Assembly (NCBI GenBank): GCA_964416985.1
Contig: CAYQFS010000002.1
Span: forward strand, 1 to 55,154
Length of the DNA: 55,154 nt
Source of the DNA: an uncultured Candidatus Saccharibacteria bacterium
GTDB taxonomy: Bacteria > Patescibacteriota > Minisyncoccia > Phycocordibacterales > PALSA-1337
Reading direction: 5' to 3'
Under the pieces are notes generated by a model. It saw only the letters and a program-made list of their open reading frames with translations. It was not told where the DNA came from and ran no database searches. Position numbers and translations under genes: made by a program. Below, in pieces: positions 47,206 to 55,154 of the stretch (positions are counted from its first letter, which is position 1; every line of letters begins with the position of its first letter).

Positions 47206-47766
47206 ATGGACGAAAATACTAAAGAAAATAATGAGGAAGTTATAATCGAAGCTGATGAAAACCTTGATGACTCTGTTCTTGCTGAGGAATCAGCACTTGA
47301 GACAGTAAAATCCCTCAAAGAAAAGCTCAAAAAGGCACTTGCAGAAAAGCAGGAATATTTAAATAGCTGGCAAAGGGACAAGGCTGAATTTATAAACGCA
47401 CGAAAAAGAGACCAGGAAGCGCAGAAGGACTTTGCTCGTTTTTCTAATGAAAATTTGATCTCTGAACTCATTCCAGTGCTCGATAGTTTTAATATGGCAA
47501 TGGGAAACAAGGAGGCTTGGGAAAAGGCTGATAAAAATTGGCGAGTGGGTGTTGAGTACATTGCAAATCAGCTCAAGAAAACCCTTGAGGATTTCGGTTT
47601 GAAGGAAATTGATCCTCTTGGAAAGCCATTTGATCCGATGCGAGATGAAGCAATAGAAGACGGGAAGGAGGGTAATCTCGTGACCACAGTCATACAGAAG
47701 GGTTATGAGCTTAATGGAAAGGTGCTCAAGGCGCCGAGGGTGAAGATTGGGGAGGTTAAGAAGTAG
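47206..47766 (+). CDS. grpE: nucleotide exchange factor GrpE
   Basis: RDKAEFINARKR, LIPVLDSF, FDPMRDEA, QKGYELNGKVLKAPRV. Confidence 0.96.
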   Translation: MDENTKENNEEVIIEADENLDDSVLAEESALETVKSLKEKLKKALAEKQEYLNSWQRDKAEFINARKRDQEAQKDFARFSNENLISELIPVLDSFNMAMGNKEAWEKADKNWRVGVEYIANQLKKTLEDFGLKEIDPLGKPFDPMRDEAIEDGKEGNLVTTVIQKGYELNGKVLKAPRVKIGEVKK

Positions 47767-47770
47767 GTAC

Positions 47771-47797
47771 AAAAAATCCGCACTAATGCGGTTTTTT
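47771..47797. terminator. bidirectional terminator
   Basis: AAAAAATCCGCA-ctaa-TGCGGTTTTTT. Confidence 0.75.
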
Positions 47798-47841
47798 GCG
47801 AAGTTTACCTTCGTGGTTTCCCCTTCTCGCTAGATAGATAA

Positions 47842-47870
47842 AGCATAGGCGATCTTGTACATAAAGTCAA
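47842..47870 (-). promoter_or_regulatory. sigma70 promoter TTGACT-N17-TATGCT, no downstream ORF
   Basis: near-consensus hexamers on the minus strand, ~65 nt before the bidirectional terminator. Confidence 0.55.
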
Positions 47871-47887
47871 GAACAATCTTTTTTCCC

Positions 47888-47902
47888 TGTGGACATAGAC
47901 CG
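47888..47902 (+). repeat. attL-like site (core TGTGGA plus P' arm ACATAGACCG)
   Basis: TGTGGA repeated at 55100-55105; arm is an 8/10 inverted match to 55093-55102. Confidence 0.75.
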
Positions 47903-48190
47903 TAAAACATCGAACACCATCAAAATCTTTGTTTTTGAATGGTATCAATTCTTAAATCACCGTAATAACGGGAAAATAACGGTGAAATTGTAGGAAAAAT
48001 TTATTTTTAAGTACCACAATTCTCATATTAGAATTGTATGTATTTCTCTTTCTTCTTGTACTGGCGCGAATTTTTTTCAAAAAGAGCTTTTGCCCGTATT
48101 AGCGGGCAATTAGCGGGTAATGAAAGCTTAATTTTTCTTTAACTAGTGAATCAAGCCTTAAAATGATAAAATCGTATTATAAATGCCTTT

Positions 48191-49813
48191 ATGTTAAAAA
48201 CTTCCGACCAACAATTTAAAGAATGGCTTACTAAACCAGAAGGACTAAATTTAGAGTTCAAAAAAGCGGAGAATAGTTTCAGTGAATCAAAAGATTTGCC
48301 TGATTATTGTGCTGCCCTGGCTAACGAAGGTGGCGGGAAACTAATCCTCGGAGTAACGAATGATAAGCAAATAACAGGCACGAAGGCTTTTGAAGGTAAT
48401 ACAGACTCACTATCTCATAAAATTTTGCAAATCATAAAAATACGAGTAGATGTTGAAGAAACAATTATTGATGATAAACGCATTTTAATTTTTCATGTTC
48501 CAAGTCGTCCTATAGCAACAATAATTAGTTCTGGCGGTGATTATAGATATCCTATGCGGGCAGGTAGTTCTTTAGTAGAAATGACTCAAGAAAAGATAAG
48601 AGAAATTCACAGCGAAACGCAATCAGATTTTTCAACACAGATTGTTCCAAAGTTAGCAATTGATGATATGGACCCGTCAGCAGTCGATACTTTTAAAGCT
48701 CTTTGGGCAAGACAGCAAAACAATGATGAGTACCTTAATTTCTCGATGGAAAAGGTATTGAGTTCAATTCACGTTCTTTCAGATGAAGGAATAAACTATG
48801 CTGGTCTTGTTCTTTTTGCCAAAAGCGAGAAAATAAGCGAATTATTGCCTGGTGCAGAAATTATCTTTGAATGGAGGCAGGAAGAAAAAATAGGGCATGA
48901 CTTTCGTAAAGAATGGCGAGTTCCTTTCTTCTCTATCTTTGATGATATTTGGGCGACTATCAATGCAAGAAACATAAGGTTCCCTTTCCAAGAGGGCTTT
49001 ATACAAAGAGAGGTTTTTGCTTTTAATGAGAAAACTATTCGAGAGGCTGTTTTAAATGCAGTAACACATAGAGACTACAATATTCAGTCACAATCAGTGT
49101 TTATTAAAGCTTCGCCCGAACAATTTTTAATACTAAGTCCTGGTGGTTTTGTAAAAGGCATTACAGCAGAAAATATACTTAATCGTTCCGCTTGGCGTAA
49201 CCGTCGTATTGCAGAAGTGTTGCAAATGGCGGGCTTGGTAGAAAGGGCGGGGCAAGGTATGGATACAATTTTCGGTAATACTATTCGTGAGGGTAAGGGG
49301 GTCCCAGATTTTAGCGGTAGCGATAATGATTGGGTTAGTTTGCATATACCAGCAAAGGTGAAAGATGAACAGTTTATTCTCTTTTTAGAGAAAGTGACAA
49401 ATGACAAACAAATTACTCTCTCCTTTGAAGAAATTTGTGAGCTAGAGAGTATTAGAGAACATCAAAAGGTTACAGATGTCAGTTCAAAAGAGAAATTCTT
49501 GAGTTTGGGAATTATTGAAAAAGTGGGTAGGACCAGTGGGGCAAAATATATTCTTTCTCATAAATGGTATCAATACAAAGAGAGACCAGGTTTGTATACA
49601 AAGATTGTTGGGCTTTCTCGCGAAAAAAATAAAGAACTAATTCTTACTCATCTTATAAAAAATCCTGAAGGAGCAAAAAGTGCTGATTTTCAAGACGCAC
49701 TCGGGCTTGACCAAAAGACGGTTAATAATATGTTACAAGAATTAAAGCAGGAAAATAAAGTTCGATTTGAAGGCGCTAAAGCCTCGGGAAAATGGTTTAT
49801 CGCAAGTAGTTAA
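48191..49813 (+). CDS. AlbA_2/Schlafen-domain ATP-binding protein (RecG-C/HATPase-like plus wHTH)
   Basis: LEFKKA..AALANEGGGKLILGV; IREAVLNAVTHRDY; RNRRIAEVL..GLVERAGQG; C-terminal wHTH. Confidence 0.88.
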   Translation: MLKTSDQQFKEWLTKPEGLNLEFKKAENSFSESKDLPDYCAALANEGGGKLILGVTNDKQITGTKAFEGNTDSLSHKILQIIKIRVDVEETIIDDKRILIFHVPSRPIATIISSGGDYRYPMRAGSSLVEMTQEKIREIHSETQSDFSTQIVPKLAIDDMDPSAVDTFKALWARQQNNDEYLNFSMEKVLSSIHVLSDEGINYAGLVLFAKSEKISELLPGAEIIFEWRQEEKIGHDFRKEWRVPFFSIFDDIWATINARNIRFPFQEGFIQREVFAFNEKTIREAVLNAVTHRDYNIQSQSVFIKASPEQFLILSPGGFVKGITAENILNRSAWRNRRIAEVLQMAGLVERAGQGMDTIFGNTIREGKGVPDFSGSDNDWVSLHIPAKVKDEQFILFLEKVTNDKQITLSFEEICELESIREHQKVTDVSSKEKFLSLGIIEKVGRTSGAKYILSHKWYQYKERPGLYTKIVGLSREKNKELILTHLIKNPEGAKSADFQDALGLDQKTVNNMLQELKQENKVRFEGAKASGKWFIASS

Positions 49814-49983
49814 TAGTAGTTAATAATTGGCACTAAATCTTAAACAAAAGTACTAGTTTAAAGGATAAAAAGTGTCTTAAATAAGTTAAGAATAAGTTGA
49901 GTTTGTTTTAAATGAGGTATGTTTTTTTTAAATGCAAAACATTGTAAAGTGGCCGTTTTTATGGCACAATACTTCTCAATACG

Positions 49984-51192
49984 ATGAACTCGGAAAAGGT
50001 CCAAAAAATTGTAGAGAACATTGGTACTCCCTGCTTTATCTACGACAAAGCGGTTCTTGACCAGAATATACAGAGGGTTTTTACATCTGCTTCTCATCAC
50101 GAATTAAATGAAAGAATAAAAATTTACATCTCATATTTTTCTAATTCTAATCCGGCTTTATTTTCTGAAATTAAGAATGAAAAAATCGGACTCTTACTTC
50201 AAACCGAGGAAGAATGGTACCAGCTTCAGAAAGGGGGTCTTCAGAAAAATATGCTTGTTTCGCCCTCATTTCTTTCTAACGAAGAAATTGATTTTTGGGT
50301 TAGCAAAGGAATTAGAGTAAATCTCGCCTCGCTTGAGGAAGTTCAGTATACATTGGAAAAATACCCAGATTATCCTATCAGCTTTAGGTTGGACTTTACC
50401 TTTTGGCAAAATCAGAGAACAGGAATAAAGAAGAAAGAGCTACCTGCTTTATTAGAAATACTACATAAATACAATAGAAAACCTCACTCATTTCATGTAT
50501 ACGCTGGTACAGGAAGTAGTTTGTCACAGATGAAAAAAGCGGCACAAAGGACACTAAAGCTCTATGAGTCTCATTTCCCTGACGTTGAGGAAATAAACTT
50601 TGGCGGTGGTTTTGGTTTTGACTACACCGCTAAAAAACCAGAGGATAAGCATTTTGATTGGGATAGTTATTTTGCTTTTTTAACCACTCTTATTTCAGAA
50701 AGTAAGGTCCCTAAAAACGTAAAGTTATCTTTTGAGCCAGGTCGTGATTTGTTCGCAGATATTGGAGTTCTTGCGACTAGGGTAAAAAGAGTCCTGAATA
50801 ACAGGTCTGTTTTAGACGTCGCTACTGATAGCTCATTTGTTTATATGCCTTCAGCGACAAAGAGGGCGCGAACTCATCAATTAAATTTTATGAGGGACTA
50901 CAAGATTATGACGGACTTCAGAGCTACAAAAGCTATGTTAAGTGGTTGTACTACTCTCTCAAAAGATTATCTTCTACCTGAAAAGGTTGAGGTACCATCA
51001 GATATAAAAATCGGAGACTTAGTAATCGTAAAAGATGTTGGGGCTTATGGTGCAACGCAACATCTTGAATTTTTGAATAAAAGACCAGCACCGGAAGTCT
51101 TGATAAATGGCGATGAAAACTACTTGATTTCAGAGAGAGGGGCCCTTGAAGATAGGGTACGATATTTGGTTTCTCCCATTAAGAAAATATAA
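49984..51192 (+). CDS. fold-III PLP decarboxylase (LysA/ODC family) homologue, atypical active site
   Basis: GTPCFIYD, INFGGGFG, FEPGR, DVGAYG; YAxKAN motif appears as SYFSNSN. Confidence 0.85.
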   Translation: MNSEKVQKIVENIGTPCFIYDKAVLDQNIQRVFTSASHHELNERIKIYISYFSNSNPALFSEIKNEKIGLLLQTEEEWYQLQKGGLQKNMLVSPSFLSNEEIDFWVSKGIRVNLASLEEVQYTLEKYPDYPISFRLDFTFWQNQRTGIKKKELPALLEILHKYNRKPHSFHVYAGTGSSLSQMKKAAQRTLKLYESHFPDVEEINFGGGFGFDYTAKKPEDKHFDWDSYFAFLTTLISESKVPKNVKLSFEPGRDLFADIGVLATRVKRVLNNRSVLDVATDSSFVYMPSATKRARTHQLNFMRDYKIMTDFRATKAMLSGCTTLSKDYLLPEKVEVPSDIKIGDLVIVKDVGAYGATQHLEFLNKRPAPEVLINGDENYLISERGALEDRVRYLVSPIKKI

Positions 51193-51986
51193 TGAAAATT
51201 GAAGACACAAAACTCTATACATCAGCCGACACCTACTTTGAAGGTCCTGATGGTATGAAAAATGAAGTAGCGATGTGGTACATTGCCTCTGGTTTACTCA
51301 TGAGAGAAATTGCAAAAAGAAAGGGTAATTTACCTTTTGGCGGACTAGGTAAAACACAAGGATATGCCATTACTCCTGACAAAGCTGACACTCTTGATTT
51401 GCTAGACCTTTGTAGCGGTCCTGGTAATTTTGTAAATCACTTAAGCTTTGCTTTTCCCTGGCTCAATGCCGTATGTGTTGATGTGAATGATACTTTCTTG
51501 AAGGCGGGACAAAAGCAGTTTGATAAATGGTCCTTTATCAATGCAGATGTTACAAAGCTTGATTTGGGTAAACAATTTGATTGCGTTACTGCCAGCTCTG
51601 CTTATCACCACATAGAACATAGTCAAAAGATAGATTTCTTAAAAACTATTAAGAAGCACTTGAAGAAGGGTGGTTTTGCTTTGATATGTGAAAACTTCTT
51701 GCCTGAATATTCTTCAGATGAAGAAAGAACTGAAAGCATAAAGCTGTATTACAGCGAACTTATAAGCTACTACAAAGAGGGTAATGCAACAGAAAAATCT
51801 ATTGAGGCTATTGATGAGGTCTTTAAGCTTGAATTAGCCGGAGTGGAAGAACATAAGGTAACAAGAGCTATATTTGAAAAACAGGTGAAAGAAGTGGGAT
51901 TGTCCATAGATATTGATATTGTCGTTTGGCAATCTGAAAAGTTGCGTTCAAGTAATGCAGGTTCGCATGTTTTGGTTTTATCATAG
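51192..51986 (+). CDS. class I SAM-dependent methyltransferase
   Basis: LLDLCSGPG motif I, VCVD, NAD, FDCV.ASSAYHH, LKKGG; TAATG overlap with the upstream gene. Confidence 0.9.
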   Translation: MKIEDTKLYTSADTYFEGPDGMKNEVAMWYIASGLLMREIAKRKGNLPFGGLGKTQGYAITPDKADTLDLLDLCSGPGNFVNHLSFAFPWLNAVCVDVNDTFLKAGQKQFDKWSFINADVTKLDLGKQFDCVTASSAYHHIEHSQKIDFLKTIKKHLKKGGFALICENFLPEYSSDEERTESIKLYYSELISYYKEGNATEKSIEAIDEVFKLELAGVEEHKVTRAIFEKQVKEVGLSIDIDIVVWQSEKLRSSNAGSHVLVLS

Positions 51987-52000
51987 ATAGCCTCGGACCC

Positions 52001-52029
52001 TTGCATTGAATTATACCTCTACGTATAAT
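52001..52029 (+). promoter_or_regulatory. sigma70 promoter TTGCAT-N17-TATAAT
   Basis: near-consensus, 7 nt before ATG 52037. Confidence 0.65.
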
Positions 52030-52036
52030 ATGGGGT

Positions 52037-52852
52037 ATGAAGGAAAAACCTATAGTTATATGCGGTGACTGGTACGACATTGCTTTCGCTAATTTCGTAC
52101 AGAAAGATAAAGAGTTATACGAAAATTACTATTTACTTCTCCAGGTCCCTCGTTATCGTGTCTCTGATACTGATGAAAAATATCGAGTTATAAATTATTG
52201 GGACGAACAAGGCTTGCTCTTGAATGAGCGAGGTAAGACGGACTCGTGGCGCAAGTTTAGTATCCTTGATGTTATTTGGATACGCATACTCCAAACACTC
52301 AAAGAGTACGGCATGGAAGGCGACAAAATTTTACGTCTCAAATCGGACCTATTTCAGGTCCAAGATAAAGAAGGACGATATACGGAGTTTGCTTTCTGGG
52401 TGAATATGGCGCACCACTACAAAGATGTATTTTTGATTGTGTTATCAGATGGCAGAGGGACCATAGCCACAACAACCGACATTGAGTTTCAACAGCTTAT
52501 CGAGCCATTTAAGCAGTCATTTATTTCCGTTGATTTTCGATACATTGTTCGGTCCATTATCTTTCCTAAAAATAAAGGTAAAAAGGTTGTTGAGTTTAAT
52601 CGCAAACTCGATGAGAAAGAAATTGAGCTATTGAACGCACTCTCGAATGTGAACGTTGAGACTGTTACAGCGCATTTGAAGAAAGGCAAGATTGACCGTA
52701 TCGAATGGAAAAGCGTTGAGCAAAACCCTGAACGGCTTTTTGAGATGTTGAGAAAGAAAATTTATGAGTCTCCAAACCAGACCATCACCCTCAAAAGGCA
52801 AGATGGAAAAGTTCTTTTTATAGAGCAGAAAAAGAGTCAGAAATTACCCTGA
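52037..52852 (+). CDS. MerR-family HTH protein
   Basis: YRVINYWDEQGLL...WRKFSILDVIWIRIL..LKEYG. Confidence 0.8.
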   Translation: MKEKPIVICGDWYDIAFANFVQKDKELYENYYLLLQVPRYRVSDTDEKYRVINYWDEQGLLLNERGKTDSWRKFSILDVIWIRILQTLKEYGMEGDKILRLKSDLFQVQDKEGRYTEFAFWVNMAHHYKDVFLIVLSDGRGTIATTTDIEFQQLIEPFKQSFISVDFRYIVRSIIFPKNKGKKVVEFNRKLDEKEIELLNALSNVNVETVTAHLKKGKIDRIEWKSVEQNPERLFEMLRKKIYESPNQTITLKRQDGKVLFIEQKKSQKLP

Positions 52853-52940
52853 CTCGAATAAGGTGACCGAGTAGCGGAGCCATTATATTTCCCGAGACAG
52901 ATGACCGATAAACGGAGTTTGCTCACAAGAAAAATATGAA

Positions 52941-53102
52941 GTGCTTACTCCACAACAAGCTCGGAAGTATCTCAAGAAACGAGACATTTCCGACGAACGA
53001 TTGAAAGTGATACTTGGGTATCTGTACGGATTGGTCGAAACAATGATTAAACAAGAACGAAAAAGCTATGAGCGACATATCAGACAAACAGCACGAGGCT
53101 AA
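52941..53102 (+). CDS. small hypothetical protein (53 aa from GTG; possible frameshifted start)
   Basis: VLTPQQARKYLKKRDISDERLKVILGYLYGLV..., a helical small protein typical upstream of LSRs; not in ORF track. Confidence 0.45.
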   Translation: MLTPQQARKYLKKRDISDERLKVILGYLYGLVETMIKQERKSYERHIRQTARG

Positions 53103-53547
53103 CAAACAAAACGCTCTTTTGGGCGGTGTTAAAACCGACGAGGGTAAGGCTATTTCTCGCTACAACGCCGTACGTCATGGAATTTTGAGAGAAACCATAA
53201 CGGAGTACGAGAAGATAGACCATGAACGCATATTCAACGAGTTTGCCGACTTCTATAAGCCTGAAAATCTCGTTGAGGAAATTCTGGTTGAACGTTTGAC
53301 TGTGGCTTATATAAAAATGGCTCGTGTCTCTCGGGCAGAAAACGAGCTTATGAAAAGTGCTATTGACCCCACGATACCTTTTGGCGAGGGTGTTTCCTAT
53401 TATGAAAAGATTGGATATAAGGTGGTCCTGCCATCGGATAAAGTGACACTACTTTCCGATGTCTATGCTCGATATGAGACTGCTGTAGAAAAGCGTTTCT
53501 ATAGGGCTATGAACACCCTTAATGAGCTTAAAAAGACATACGCATGA
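53068..53547 (+). CDS. hypothetical mobile-element protein
   Basis: GGVKTDEGKAISRYNAVRHG motif; ATGA coupling to the LSR. Confidence 0.75.
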   Translation: MSDISDKQHEANKQNALLGGVKTDEGKAISRYNAVRHGILRETITEYEKIDHERIFNEFADFYKPENLVEEILVERLTVAYIKMARVSRAENELMKSAIDPTIPFGEGVSYYEKIGYKVVLPSDKVTLLSDVYARYETAVEKRFYRAMNTLNELKKTYA

Positions 53548-55139
53548 GTACTAAATCCTCAAAAATGGGTTTGTTTGGTAAAAAGCTCAAGATTGAGGAT
53601 TATGAGTTTGCCCTTAGCTATTGTCGTGTATCTTCAAAGAAACAAGAGCTTGAGGGTAGTGGGCTTGATAGCCAAGAGACCCGAAATGAACAACTCGCAA
53701 AATATCACAAGCTAAAAATCGAGAAAGTTTTTCGGGATACGTTCTCGGGTGGTGGCGATTTCATGAAGCGTCCCGACATGCGTGAGCTTATTGAATATCT
53801 CGACGCACACCCGTACAGAAAATACGTAGTTATCTTTGATGACCTCAAGCGCTTTGCTCGTGACACAAAATTTCACTTTGAGCTTAGGACGGCTCTTGAG
53901 GCTCGCAACGCTTTACCTCTGTGCTCAAACTTTGTCTTTGACGATACGCCCGAAGGTGTCTTTGTCGAGACAATTCAAGCGGCACATAATCAGCTCGAAC
54001 GCGAACAGAATAGACGACAGGTGATAGAAAAGCAGAGAGCATGTCTTGAACGTGGCTATTGGGCTTTTCACTCGCTTAAGGGCTATTCAAAGAGTAAAAC
54101 GAGCATTGGTAAGCGTGATGAGCCTAACGAGCAAAATAAGTACATCAGAGAGCTTTTTGAGGGGTTCTTTTCCGGTCGTTTTCAGCAATTTATTGATGGG
54201 GCACGTTTTCTCAAAGAGACGAAAGTGCTCGGGAAGGCACACCCTGAAAAATATATTGAGACGGTTAAGAGTATTCTCACGCAACCTTTCTACGCAGGCT
54301 TTTTAGAATACCCGAAATGGGAAGTGTCTCGACGACAAGGAATACATGAACCGACTGTCAGCCCTGAATTGTTTGAGGCGGTCCAAAAGAAAATCACCCG
54401 TAACTACAATGTTGTAAAAGTAAGACAAGATATTAACCCTGATTTTCCTTTGCGTGGTTTAGTGAGCTGTGCAGTTTGCAAGAGTAAACTCACTGGCGCA
54501 TGGTCCAAAGGCAAAAAACAATTGTACCCGTATTACTTTTGTCAGAATAAAAAGTGTCCGCTCAAGAGTTCTGTTATCCGAAGGAAGGACCTCGAAGATA
54601 AATTCGAGGAGCTCTTGCAGAAGATGACAACCGACGACGATATTATCGAGCTCGCAAAAGCTGTTTTCATTGACGCAAAAGAAACTGATGAAAAAGAGTC
54701 AGTTTTGGAAAAGAAAACGTATGCCAAGCGAAAAGAAGAATGTGAGGCTGATATTGAAAACTATATGGAGCGTGCCGGTAAAGCCAAGGTCCCGTCAGTG
54801 ATTGCTCAATACGAAAAGAAAATCGAGAAGTTGGCGGCCGAACTTGAACAATTGGAGTCAGATAGCCTTGCCGAGTACGACTATGGCGTACCTTATCGAA
54901 CAGCCTTGGACAAAGTAATGGGCGTGCTTAAAAACCCTTATCCTACTTGGGCGGAGTTCGATGTTTTCGGGCAACAGAAGTTCTTTTCATTCCTTTTTGA
55001 GGTGAATTTAGAGTACGACAAAAAAGAGGGTTATCGAACACCAAAATATACAGTCCTTAAAAGGGTTTTAGAGGAAATTGAGTCCTCTGGCTCGGTTGAT
55101 GTGGAGATGACGGGAGTCGAACCCGCAAACCCCAGCTAG
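53544..55139 (+). CDS. large serine recombinase
   Basis: YCRVSS catalytic Ser, DDLKRFAR, recombinase domain, zinc ribbon CAVC...YYFCQNKKC, coiled coil. Confidence 0.95.
   Translation: MSTKSSKMGLFGKKLKIEDYEFALSYCRVSSKKQELEGSGLDSQETRNEQLAKYHKLKIEKVFRDTFSGGGDFMKRPDMRELIEYLDAHPYRKYVVIFDDLKRFARDTKFHFELRTALEARNALPLCSNFVFDDTPEGVFVETIQAAHNQLEREQNRRQVIEKQRACLERGYWAFHSLKGYSKSKTSIGKRDEPNEQNKYIRELFEGFFSGRFQQFIDGARFLKETKVLGKAHPEKYIETVKSILTQPFYAGFLEYPKWEVSRRQGIHEPTVSPELFEAVQKKITRNYNVVKVRQDINPDFPLRGLVSCAVCKSKLTGAWSKGKKQLYPYYFCQNKKCPLKSSVIRRKDLEDKFEELLQKMTTDDDIIELAKAVFIDAKETDEKESVLEKKTYAKRKEECEADIENYMERAGKAKVPSVIAQYEKKIEKLAAELEQLESDSLAEYDYGVPYRTALDKVMGVLKNPYPTWAEFDVFGQQKFFSFLFEVNLEYDKKEGYRTPKYTVLKRVLEEIESSGSVDVEMTGVEPANPS
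55093..55105 (+). repeat. attR-like site (P arm CGGTTGATGT plus core)
   Basis: core TGTGGA 55100-55105 inside the LSR ORF. Confidence 0.75.
55102..55126 (-). other. tmRNA/tRNA-Ala-like 3' end fragment (T arm, acceptor 3' strand, discriminator)
   Basis: GCGGG-TTCGACT-CCCGT-CATCTCC-A; upstream bases lack the GGAC or anticodon arm expected of an intact gene. Confidence 0.65.
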
Positions 55140-55154
55140 CGAGAAGGAGTTCCA

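Follow-up and report, generated by a model that had tools for sequence, protein, structure and literature searches.

A protein of 402 amino acids, encoded in a 55,154-nucleotide stretch of DNA from an uncultured Candidatus Saccharibacteria bacterium (GenBank assembly GCA_964416985.1, contig CAYQFS010000002.1, positions 1 to 55,154; the whole stretch is called the window below), is a homologue of the fold-type III pyridoxal 5′-phosphate (PLP) decarboxylases in which phenylalanine appears to take the place of the Schiff-base lysine. PLP enzymes are generally defined by the internal aldimine that the cofactor forms with a lysine of the active site. The protein is not a single oddity but a member of a large, old and strongly selected lysine-less branch, which is distributed among bacteria of the Candidate Phyla Radiation (CPR), DPANN archaea, the Ralstonia solanacearum megaplasmid, many Streptomyces, myxobacteria and cyanobacteria, and it probably uses unusual cofactor chemistry rather than being the product of a dead gene. 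The gene (49984..51192, + strand; 1,209 nucleotides, ATG to TAA) has no internal stop codon and is the first gene of a cassette in which a methyltransferase gene comes second. An earlier annotation of the window made without database searches (the sequence-only reading) had described one PLP decarboxylase homologue without its lysine; the finding is larger in scale than that, as it concerns a whole lysine-less clade, and it is biochemically puzzling. Full-text literature searches found no description of a lysine-less fold-type III clade and none of a natural exception to the internal-aldimine lysine in this fold, and no model specific to the lysine-less proteins is present in Pfam, NCBIfam, PADLOC or PHROG.

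Homology to the ornithine/diaminopimelate (DAP)/arginine decarboxylases is clear from a structure-sequence search, NCBIfam and Foldseek, despite weak Pfam scores (Orn_Arg_deC_N, PF02784, 23.8 bits with a gathering score of 23.4; the C-terminal domain, PF00278, 21.5 bits with a gathering score of 23). A phmmer search against solved structures gave E. coli LysA (1knw, 2e-16) as the top match, together with BtrK and further DAP decarboxylases. From 68 sequences, AlphaFold2 gave a model with a predicted local distance difference test score (pLDDT) of 94.9 and a predicted template modeling score (pTM) of 0.92, and Foldseek with this model returned LysA and BtrK as the best matches (template modeling score, TM, ~0.8; E ~1e-28), confirming the fold-type III architecture of an N-terminal TIM barrel and a C-terminal β-sandwich. 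LysA (E. coli, 1KNW/1KO0) and BtrK (2J66/7RU7) share with the window protein the two-domain fold, the length, the GGG loop, EPGR, GAY, Asp328 and the x-N-x-N strand motif. The window protein differs from both in having Phe52 for lysine, arginine for the lysine of the SKFG loop, tyrosine for the stacking histidine and TLS for CES; it is 18-21% identical to them and is encoded beside a methyltransferase in a mobile cassette, not in a lysine pathway. The sequence-only reading had held that the gene is not ordinary LysA cargo, which agrees with the score of 110.2 bits against the cut-off of 297.9 for the NCBIfam lysA equivalog model (TIGR01048), with the loss of the lysine, the stacking histidine and the Cys and Glu of CESGD, with the absence of the RP/Y distal-carboxylate motif of LysA, and with the linkage to the methyltransferase.

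The residue at the Schiff-base position is Phe52 (codon TTT, 50137..50139; all motifs given here lie on the + strand), which stands in SYFSNSN (residues 50-56, 50131-50151; motif form Y-F-x-N-S-N-P). Alignments by phmmer set Phe52 beneath the Schiff-base lysine of 4xg1 (YAVKANSN) and of BtrK (YLSLKANNN), MAFFT alignments with 41 and with 189 relatives both put it in the lysine column, and hhalign to MccE (SYKSNN) placed it at the lysine position again. The register is fixed by the neighboring Asn54 and Asn56, which every group retains, and a read error does not account for the residue, as TTT differs from AAA at three positions. The assignment of Phe52 in the sequence-only reading was thus borne out, and none of the alignments placed a lysine at the PLP position; judged from these concordant sequence and profile alignments and from the fold identity, the lysine is absent. 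The placement is far beyond chance, since the residue is invariant family-wide and co-varies with five other active-site positions. The second active-site lysine, which belongs to the S-K-F-G loop in canonical enzymes, is replaced by Arg145 (50416..50418).

The other motifs reported in the sequence-only reading were found where it had put them. The phosphate-binding glycine loop GGGFG (residues 207-211, 50602..50616), EPGR (residues 251-254, 50734..50745) and GAYG (residues 353-356, 51040..51051; Tyr355 contacts the cofactor phosphate) are kept, whereas two are divergent. HVYAGT (residues 171-176, 50494..50511) corresponds to HxHxGS with the second histidine changed to Tyr173 and the serine to Thr176, and GCTTLSKD (residues 321-328, 50944..50967) replaces GPxCESGD, with Thr324 for cysteine, Leu325 for glutamate and Asp328 kept. 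In the established structures of ornithine decarboxylase (ODC) and DAP decarboxylase (DAPDC), from which the roles of the EPGR residues are taken, the glutamate equivalent to Glu251 pairs with the pyridine nitrogen. GAYG is followed by a family-specific TQH(L/M)EFLNK motif with an invariant His360.

A search covering 5.8 billion proteins revealed ~60 close relatives with 37-70% identity in Paceibacterota, Uhrbacteria, Peregrinibacteria and Nano-, Woese- and Pacearchaeota, and a one-genome-per-species scan gave 66 further loci. Phenylalanine occupies the lysine position in all 57 core members, which share only 37-70% identity with one another and come from CPR bacteria, DPANN archaea, Streptomyces and Ralstonia. 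The core family can be divided into two subfamilies. Type A, which includes the window protein, is found in CPR bacteria and DPANN archaea and carries the motifs Y-F-x-N-S-N-P, H-x-Y-x-G-T-G-S and G-x-T-T-L-S-x-D-Y. Type B is a sister subfamily with ~38% identity, present in many Streptomyces and in Mesorhizobium, Aureimonas, Roseibium and Ralstonia; its motifs are F-F-P-N-S-N-P-H, E-V-Y-C-G-S-G-N and R-G-R-x-I-L-R-x-D-Y, again with phenylalanine at the lysine position. Among 49 core sequences with a mean identity of 49%, 42 columns are invariant, and dN/dS values of 0.06-0.19 (Nei-Gojobori method, 11 gene pairs from both subfamilies) show that the core family is under strong purifying selection. 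Recent decay of a lysA gene, a pseudogene or an error of sequencing would account for the missing lysine and for nothing further; these explanations are excluded by the intact reading frame, the TTT codon and the low dN/dS, and by the fact that bacterial and archaeal relatives without exception have the same residue.

The core family belongs to a larger lysine-less assemblage. When 1.84 billion cluster representatives were searched exhaustively with HMMER, 1,553 matches were obtained, from which 189 full-length relatives were aligned; the lysine column is occupied by phenylalanine in 74 of them, lysine in 62, methionine in 31, valine in 12, proline in 3, leucine in 2 and serine in 1, with a gap in 4. 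In a neighbor-joining tree of the 183 rows that have no gap at reference columns 52 and 355, the 62 lysine-bearing sequences form one clade and the 121 lysine-less sequences all fall outside it, so that a single split separates them; as this tree has no root and its sampling favors relatives of the query, neither the direction of change nor the total size of the clade is fixed by it. The sequence-only reading had named lysine in close homologues as the sign of recent decay, and lysine was found in 0/57 core members and in 0/64 other lysine-less relatives.

Comparison of these two groups with the 62 lysine-bearing sequences revealed a coordinated change of the active site. Position 52 changes from lysine to F, M or V across the lysine-less clades. 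Position 145 is lysine in 53/62 lysine-bearing sequences and arginine in 51/57 core and 46/64 other lysine-less sequences. Tyr173 is present in 100% of the core and 97% of the other lysine-less sequences, the residue there being histidine in 77% of the lysine-bearing ones, and further shared changes are S176 to T, I323 (aliphatic) to T, C324 to T or V, and E325 to L, Y or F. The window protein, which lies outside the lysine-bearing clade, carries the full lysine-less set (F52, R145, Y173, T176, T323, T324 and L325). By contrast with these reactive positions, P16, Y20, N54, R135, H171, G175, G207-209, E251, P252, G253, R254, H298, G321, D328, G353, A354 and Y355 are 80-100% conserved in all three groups; Y355, D328 and R135 are ~100% conserved, as is E251 (100% in each group), and G207-G209 are at least 91% conserved in every group. 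In ODC and DAPDC structures, most of these residues anchor PLP through its phosphate, its O3′ and its pyridine nitrogen. Therefore, the cofactor pocket has been kept and only the reactive residues have been swapped.

Residues that might compensate for the lost groups were gained in the core family, namely the invariant His223 (in K-H-F-D-W) and His360 (in T-Q-H), which are candidates for taking over the acid/base role. In the same alignment, the lysine-less clades have no conserved lysine in common. Lys149 is the sole near-invariant lysine of the core family (93%) and is found in 8% of the other lysine-less sequences. The suggestion of the sequence-only reading that the lysine of SKD acts in trans was rejected, as this position (327) is serine in 35/57 core members and variable elsewhere.

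The second cassette gene (51192..51986, + strand) encodes a class I S-adenosylmethionine (SAM)-dependent methyltransferase of 264 amino acids (Pfam Methyltransf_25, 1e-13); the ATG of this gene and the TAA that ends the decarboxylase homologue overlap in the junction TAATG. A methyltransferase homologue with 41-55% identity lies downstream in 21/23 distinct type-A loci (25/27 as fetched, some places being represented twice), both proteins are fused in a 684-amino-acid protein of Peregrinibacteria (P0046), and a mirror-tree comparison of 19 cassettes showed that the pairwise distances of the two proteins correlate (r=0.84). The functional link between the decarboxylase homologue and the methyltransferase is therefore strong. 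A class IV aminotransferase with its own lysine is inserted between the two cassette genes in 7 loci. Type-A loci often have a divergent upstream regulator, either TrmB-type or double-winged-helix-turn-helix AsnC-type, which fits small-molecule or amino-acid metabolism, and their wider neighborhoods vary: serine recombinases are frequent there, and ATPases or restriction genes occur in some. The CPR hosts of the type-A cassettes (L010-L029) are Paceibacterota, Uhrbacteria, Giovannonibacteria, Harrisonbacteria and Peregrinibacteria, and the DPANN hosts are Woese-, Pace- and Nanoarchaeota; the occurrence of the cassette at 40-50% identity in both CPR bacteria and DPANN archaea implies transfer between domains. 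One locus deposited as 'Gammaproteobacteria' (L017) has a gene ~80% identical to Uhrbacteria copies and is probably mis-binned. In one Paceibacterota lineage (L003/L004, 4379-5995), a gene for an AAA_15/AAA_21 (SMC_N-like) ATPase ends 6 nucleotides before the LysA-like gene and is possibly part of the same operon.

The methyltransferase was modeled by AlphaFold2 with a pLDDT of 95.7, and its nearest sequences and folds are MM_2633 and the O-methyltransferases CysG and BelI of cystargolide and belactosin biosynthesis (TM ~0.58, 17-21% identity). Its family invariants are His139-His140, Glu25, Glu220, Lys222 and Trp246, and His139-His140 aligns with the His-His of MM_2633. CysG and BelI methylate a carboxylate and bind Ca2+ through a His-His-Asp motif, and MM_2633 is the closest structural match reported for them (PMC11408123). 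The window methyltransferase thus resembles these proteins in its best sequence and fold matches and shares the His-His with MM_2633, but its C-terminal half is different. It also differs from CysG, whose N-terminal segment binds the substrate via Arg22, in an extra N-terminal helix with the invariant Glu25. The enzyme has an ordinary SAM motif I, may be metal-dependent, and is predicted to methylate an N, O or C atom of a small molecule. Orthology with the methyltransferase of the Met-type operons described below was rejected, as the similarity is limited to the SAM motif.

A class I SAM enzyme working with a fold-type III decarboxylase is known from microcin C maturation, where MccD transfers an aminocarboxypropyl group and the N-terminal domain of MccE is the decarboxylase (PMC11350588). 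The mcc operon is like the window in that the gene of a ~265-amino-acid class I SAM Rossmann enzyme overlaps that of a fold-type III decarboxylase homologue. However, the gene order is reversed, and ThiF, peptide and immunity genes are absent from the window. MccE keeps the SYKSNN lysine, fHlHvGS and the C-x-E-C-D loop, whereas the window protein has none of these. Membership of the cassette in the MccD/MccE system was rejected, as MccE is canonical and the BLASTP comparison of the window methyltransferase with MccD (E = 4.7) covered motif I only.

Other lysine-less clades are found in comparable surroundings. In the Met-type clade, an operon with the order LysA-like protein, spermidine-synthase-like protein, methyltransferase, spermidine-synthase-like protein and EamA exporter was seen in Cystobacter fuscus (L076, 8001-12000) and Streptoalloteichus tenebrarius (L077, 6841-11727), with relatives in Sorangium and others, and some members are fused to a spermidine-synthase-like or methyltransferase domain (P0101, P0128 and P0344). 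The first spermidine-synthase-like partner has GGGPGG and the second GGANGG, in contrast to the acidic GGG(D/E)G (GGGEGA in Thermus SpeE). The acidic residue of this motif contacts the amine of decarboxylated SAM, and the substitution hints that these partners may not use decarboxylated SAM. A clade with ~30% identity (the 'FFACPN' clade) is encoded after an amino-acid-type ABC importer and before a methyltransferase. These parallel SAM-enzyme and importer contexts imply an amine-type product. A Met-type lysine-less homologue annotated as 'alanine racemase' on Mesorhizobium huakuii plasmid p_3 (L080, 171843-186958) has as neighbors two radical SAM proteins, split DegT-type aminotransferases, transketolase subunits, a DUF3050 protein and TldD-like proteins. 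A Val-type homologue (L009, 5063-11106) lies between two asparagine-synthetase/glutamine amidotransferase homologues with flanking transposase fragments, in what looks like a small biosynthetic cluster.

Type-B genes belong to a different, conserved cluster, which encodes a B3/4-domain protein, a YggS-like protein, a flavin oxidoreductase (old yellow enzyme domain plus Pyr_redox_2), TrpD, TrpC, the LysA-like protein, a PdxH-like oxidase and LysE (L078, CP022482.1 296573-315799; L026, L030, L035 and ~45 more). It is present on the megaplasmid of ~128 records of the Ralstonia solanacearum complex, where the gene is annotated as 'diaminopimelate decarboxylase' and the cluster adjoins metE (RSp0676) near the hdf operon. 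Identity of this cluster with the hdf (3-hydroxy-oxindole) operon was rejected, as hdfA is RSp0693 and the genes are different.

The fold, the conserved pocket, the absence of the lysine, the purifying selection and the gene linkage with its fusion are observed, and the intact pocket, the coordinated residue replacement and the strong selection argue for an active enzyme with a non-covalent B6 cofactor. With neither the Schiff-base lysine nor the other lysine of the active site left, the protein cannot tether such a cofactor. We tentatively propose, with slightly more doubt than confidence, that the protein is a functional fold-type III enzyme in which non-covalent PLP forms an aldimine directly with the substrate, decarboxylation follows, and the product is passed to the methyltransferase. 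PLP would be kept in its usual pocket as the free aldehyde, the α-amino group of the substrate would make the aldimine with it, CO2 would be lost with the pyridinium-Glu251 pair as the electron sink, and the product imine would be freed through hydrolysis, not transimination. The enzyme would catalyze the first step of a mobile two-gene (in some genomes three-gene) cassette, and its product, an amine, would stem from an amino acid or a SAM-derived aminocarboxypropyl compound and be handed to the translationally coupled methyltransferase. The class IV aminotransferase of some genomes would supply or convert the substrate. In this scheme, PLP binding, decarboxylation as the reaction, the order of steps and the substrate are what we infer. 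It fits the logic of an aminotransferase/decarboxylase/methyltransferase series, the amino-acid importer context and the need of the aminopropyltransferase-like operons for an amine. With respect to the two options offered by the sequence-only reading, a pseudoenzyme or non-canonical chemistry, the latter is thus preferred in the form of a substrate-only aldimine.

A precedent for cofactor use without a covalent tether is provided by the ColD/E1 sugar dehydratases, fold-type I enzymes dependent on pyridoxamine 5′-phosphate (PMP) or PLP that naturally have no Schiff-base lysine. They have another fold and a histidine as the base at the lysine position, whereas the window clade has an inert Phe, Met or Val there; any base must therefore come from elsewhere, with Y173, H223 and H360 as candidates. 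Several points weigh against the proposed direct-aldimine decarboxylase. The canonical lysine of this fold speeds Schiff-base exchange, decarboxylation and product release, as known from ODC K69 mutants, so that an efficient lysine-less decarboxylase would need some compensation. The usual proton donors, lysine and cysteine, are both missing, and PMP plus an aldehyde could result instead of an amine. In addition, the nearest structural relatives of the methyltransferase, CysG and BelI, are carboxyl O-methyltransferases, which is a poor fit with simple amine N-methylation, and Lys149, which is specific to the core family, may reach the cofactor.

The possible formation of PMP leads to the first of three serious though unlikely alternatives, namely a decarboxylation-dependent transaminase or aldehyde synthase using PLP as a co-substrate, in which protonation of the quinonoid at C4′ (or its reaction with O2) would give an aldehyde and free PMP; the untethered PMP would leave and be recycled by another enzyme. 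With the general acid/base residues K52 and C324 lost together, neither would protonate Cα; type B, with phenylalanine at the lysine position, adjoins dedicated paralogues of PdxH (a PMP/pyridoxine 5′-phosphate oxidase) and YggS (a PLP carrier) in Ralstonia, Streptomyces and others, and some type-A cassettes include a class IV aminotransferase. According to the title of PDB entry 9cpz, Cys-to-Ser variants of a fold-type III decarboxylase were crystallized with PMP and the aldehyde product. The window cassette, on the other hand, has no PdxH, YggS or aldehyde-handling enzyme, protonation at C4′ is normally carried out by the missing lysine itself, and in other lysine-less clades the aminopropyltransferase-like enzymes of the operons require an amine rather than an aldehyde. 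Many CPR and DPANN hosts are anaerobic, which argues against the O2-dependent version. The second, decidedly unlikely, is a decarboxylase for SAM-derived substrates. It would be a PLP-type enzyme acting on SAM or S-methylmethionine, or it would carry out the second step of an aminopropylation independent of decarboxylated SAM. The loss of cationic lysines and the gain of Phe and Tyr would suit a sulfonium or polycationic substrate, lysine-less clades are repeatedly linked or fused to SAM-binding Rossmann enzymes, the GGGPGG of the Met-type spermidine-synthase-like partner, compared with GGGEGA of Thermus SpeE, is compatible with SAM itself as the substrate, and MccD/MccE offer a precedent (PMC11350588). 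Yet the decarboxylase domain of MccE retains the lysine and all canonical motifs, the window methyltransferase is unlike MccD except for motif I, which is of the ordinary SAM type, and resembles small-molecule methyltransferases, and the amino-acid ABC importer preceding the pair in one related clade suggests an imported amino acid. In a wider form, which is likewise improbable, the lysine-less fold-type III proteins would constitute a distinct ancient class that processes SAM-derived or sulfonium/aminocarboxypropyl substrates with PLP and no internal aldimine. This would mean a non-pyruvoyl SAM decarboxylase, or an aminopropylation independent of decarboxylated SAM in which the Rossmann partner transfers the aminocarboxypropyl group and the lysine-less enzyme removes CO2. 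The window cassette, common to CPR bacteria and DPANN archaea, would then represent the smallest version of this class, a mobile pair of genes.

Less probable still is the third, which is the other option of the sequence-only reading, a pseudoenzyme acting as a dead ligand-binding or scaffold subunit that regulates the methyltransferase or presents its substrate. Both active-site lysines and the catalytic cysteine are lost, the coupling and fusion to a partner enzyme are tight, and no curated family or activity was found for the protein. Antizyme inhibitor and the trypanosomatid prozymes are similar in being decarboxylase homologues short of an essential catalytic feature and associated with a partner protein. 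Antizyme inhibitor has lost PLP binding. The window clade, in contrast, is ancient, very diverse and under strong selection, and its whole cofactor pocket, Glu251 included, is conserved as in active enzymes across clades with different partners; the new invariant polar residues H223, H360 and T323 look like re-engineering rather than decay, and the type-B sister clade occurs without any methyltransferase. A pseudoenzyme is accordingly disfavored. It is very improbable that the pocket binds another phosphorylated aromatic ligand (indole-glycerol-phosphate-like or nucleotide-like) for a PLP-independent activity. Such a ligand would be in keeping with the pattern of replacement, which is confined to residues reacting with the PLP aldehyde and spares those that bind the phosphate and the ring, and with the TrpD/TrpC homologues next to type B, which make aryl-phosphate intermediates. 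However, Glu251, Arg254 and Tyr355 show exactly the conservation seen in PLP enzymes, the type-B cluster with its PdxH and YggS points to B6 vitamers, and we know of no precedent in this fold.

In the lysine-less branch, the two active-site lysines and the two proton donors have given way to other residues around an intact pocket. Elucidation of its role would show how B6 chemistry proceeds without a lysine. A function would then follow for proteins now annotated as 'diaminopimelate decarboxylase', and new amine, polyamine or SAM-derived metabolites could be uncovered, including those of a major plant pathogen and of ultra-small symbionts with minimal metabolism. The present naming is a systematic annotation error, and metabolic reconstructions should leave lysine-less genes out of the lysA count.

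In the window, the ribosomal-protein genes have a G+C content of ~0.44, which drops to 0.34-0.39 between 47.5 and 52.5 kb. The gene at 53544..55139 encodes a large serine recombinase (integrase; + strand; Pfam Resolvase/Recombinase/Zn_ribbon_recom; PHROG integrase, 3.5e-63). The drop in G+C together with this recombinase identifies the cassette as cargo of a mobile island. No tRNA was found near the island (47500-55154). The 90%-identity cluster of the recombinase has 21 members on many contigs, suggesting that the element is currently active. Between the cassette and the recombinase gene lies a gene for a MerR-like helix-turn-helix protein (52037..52852, + strand; Pfam MerR_1, 3.7e-5). The upstream neighbor in the low-G+C island (48191..49813, + strand) encodes an AlbA_2 (Schlafen-like) and HATPase_c_4 protein by Pfam, which also matched a PHROG 'DNA helicase' family and, over part of its length, PADLOC models of pAgo-associated SIR2-PNTD (E ~1e-14); it is possibly a regulator. 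A defense-system reading of the cassette was rejected, as the decarboxylase homologue matched neither the PADLOC defense models nor PHROG, the methyltransferase matched only the generic SAM domain of mad2 in PADLOC, and the adjacent TrmB/AsnC regulators of related loci point to metabolism. The cassettes tend to sit amid defense-like genes, and the island of a related clade (L007/L008) carries a restriction enzyme and a protein combining dCMP-deaminase and HATPase_c_4.

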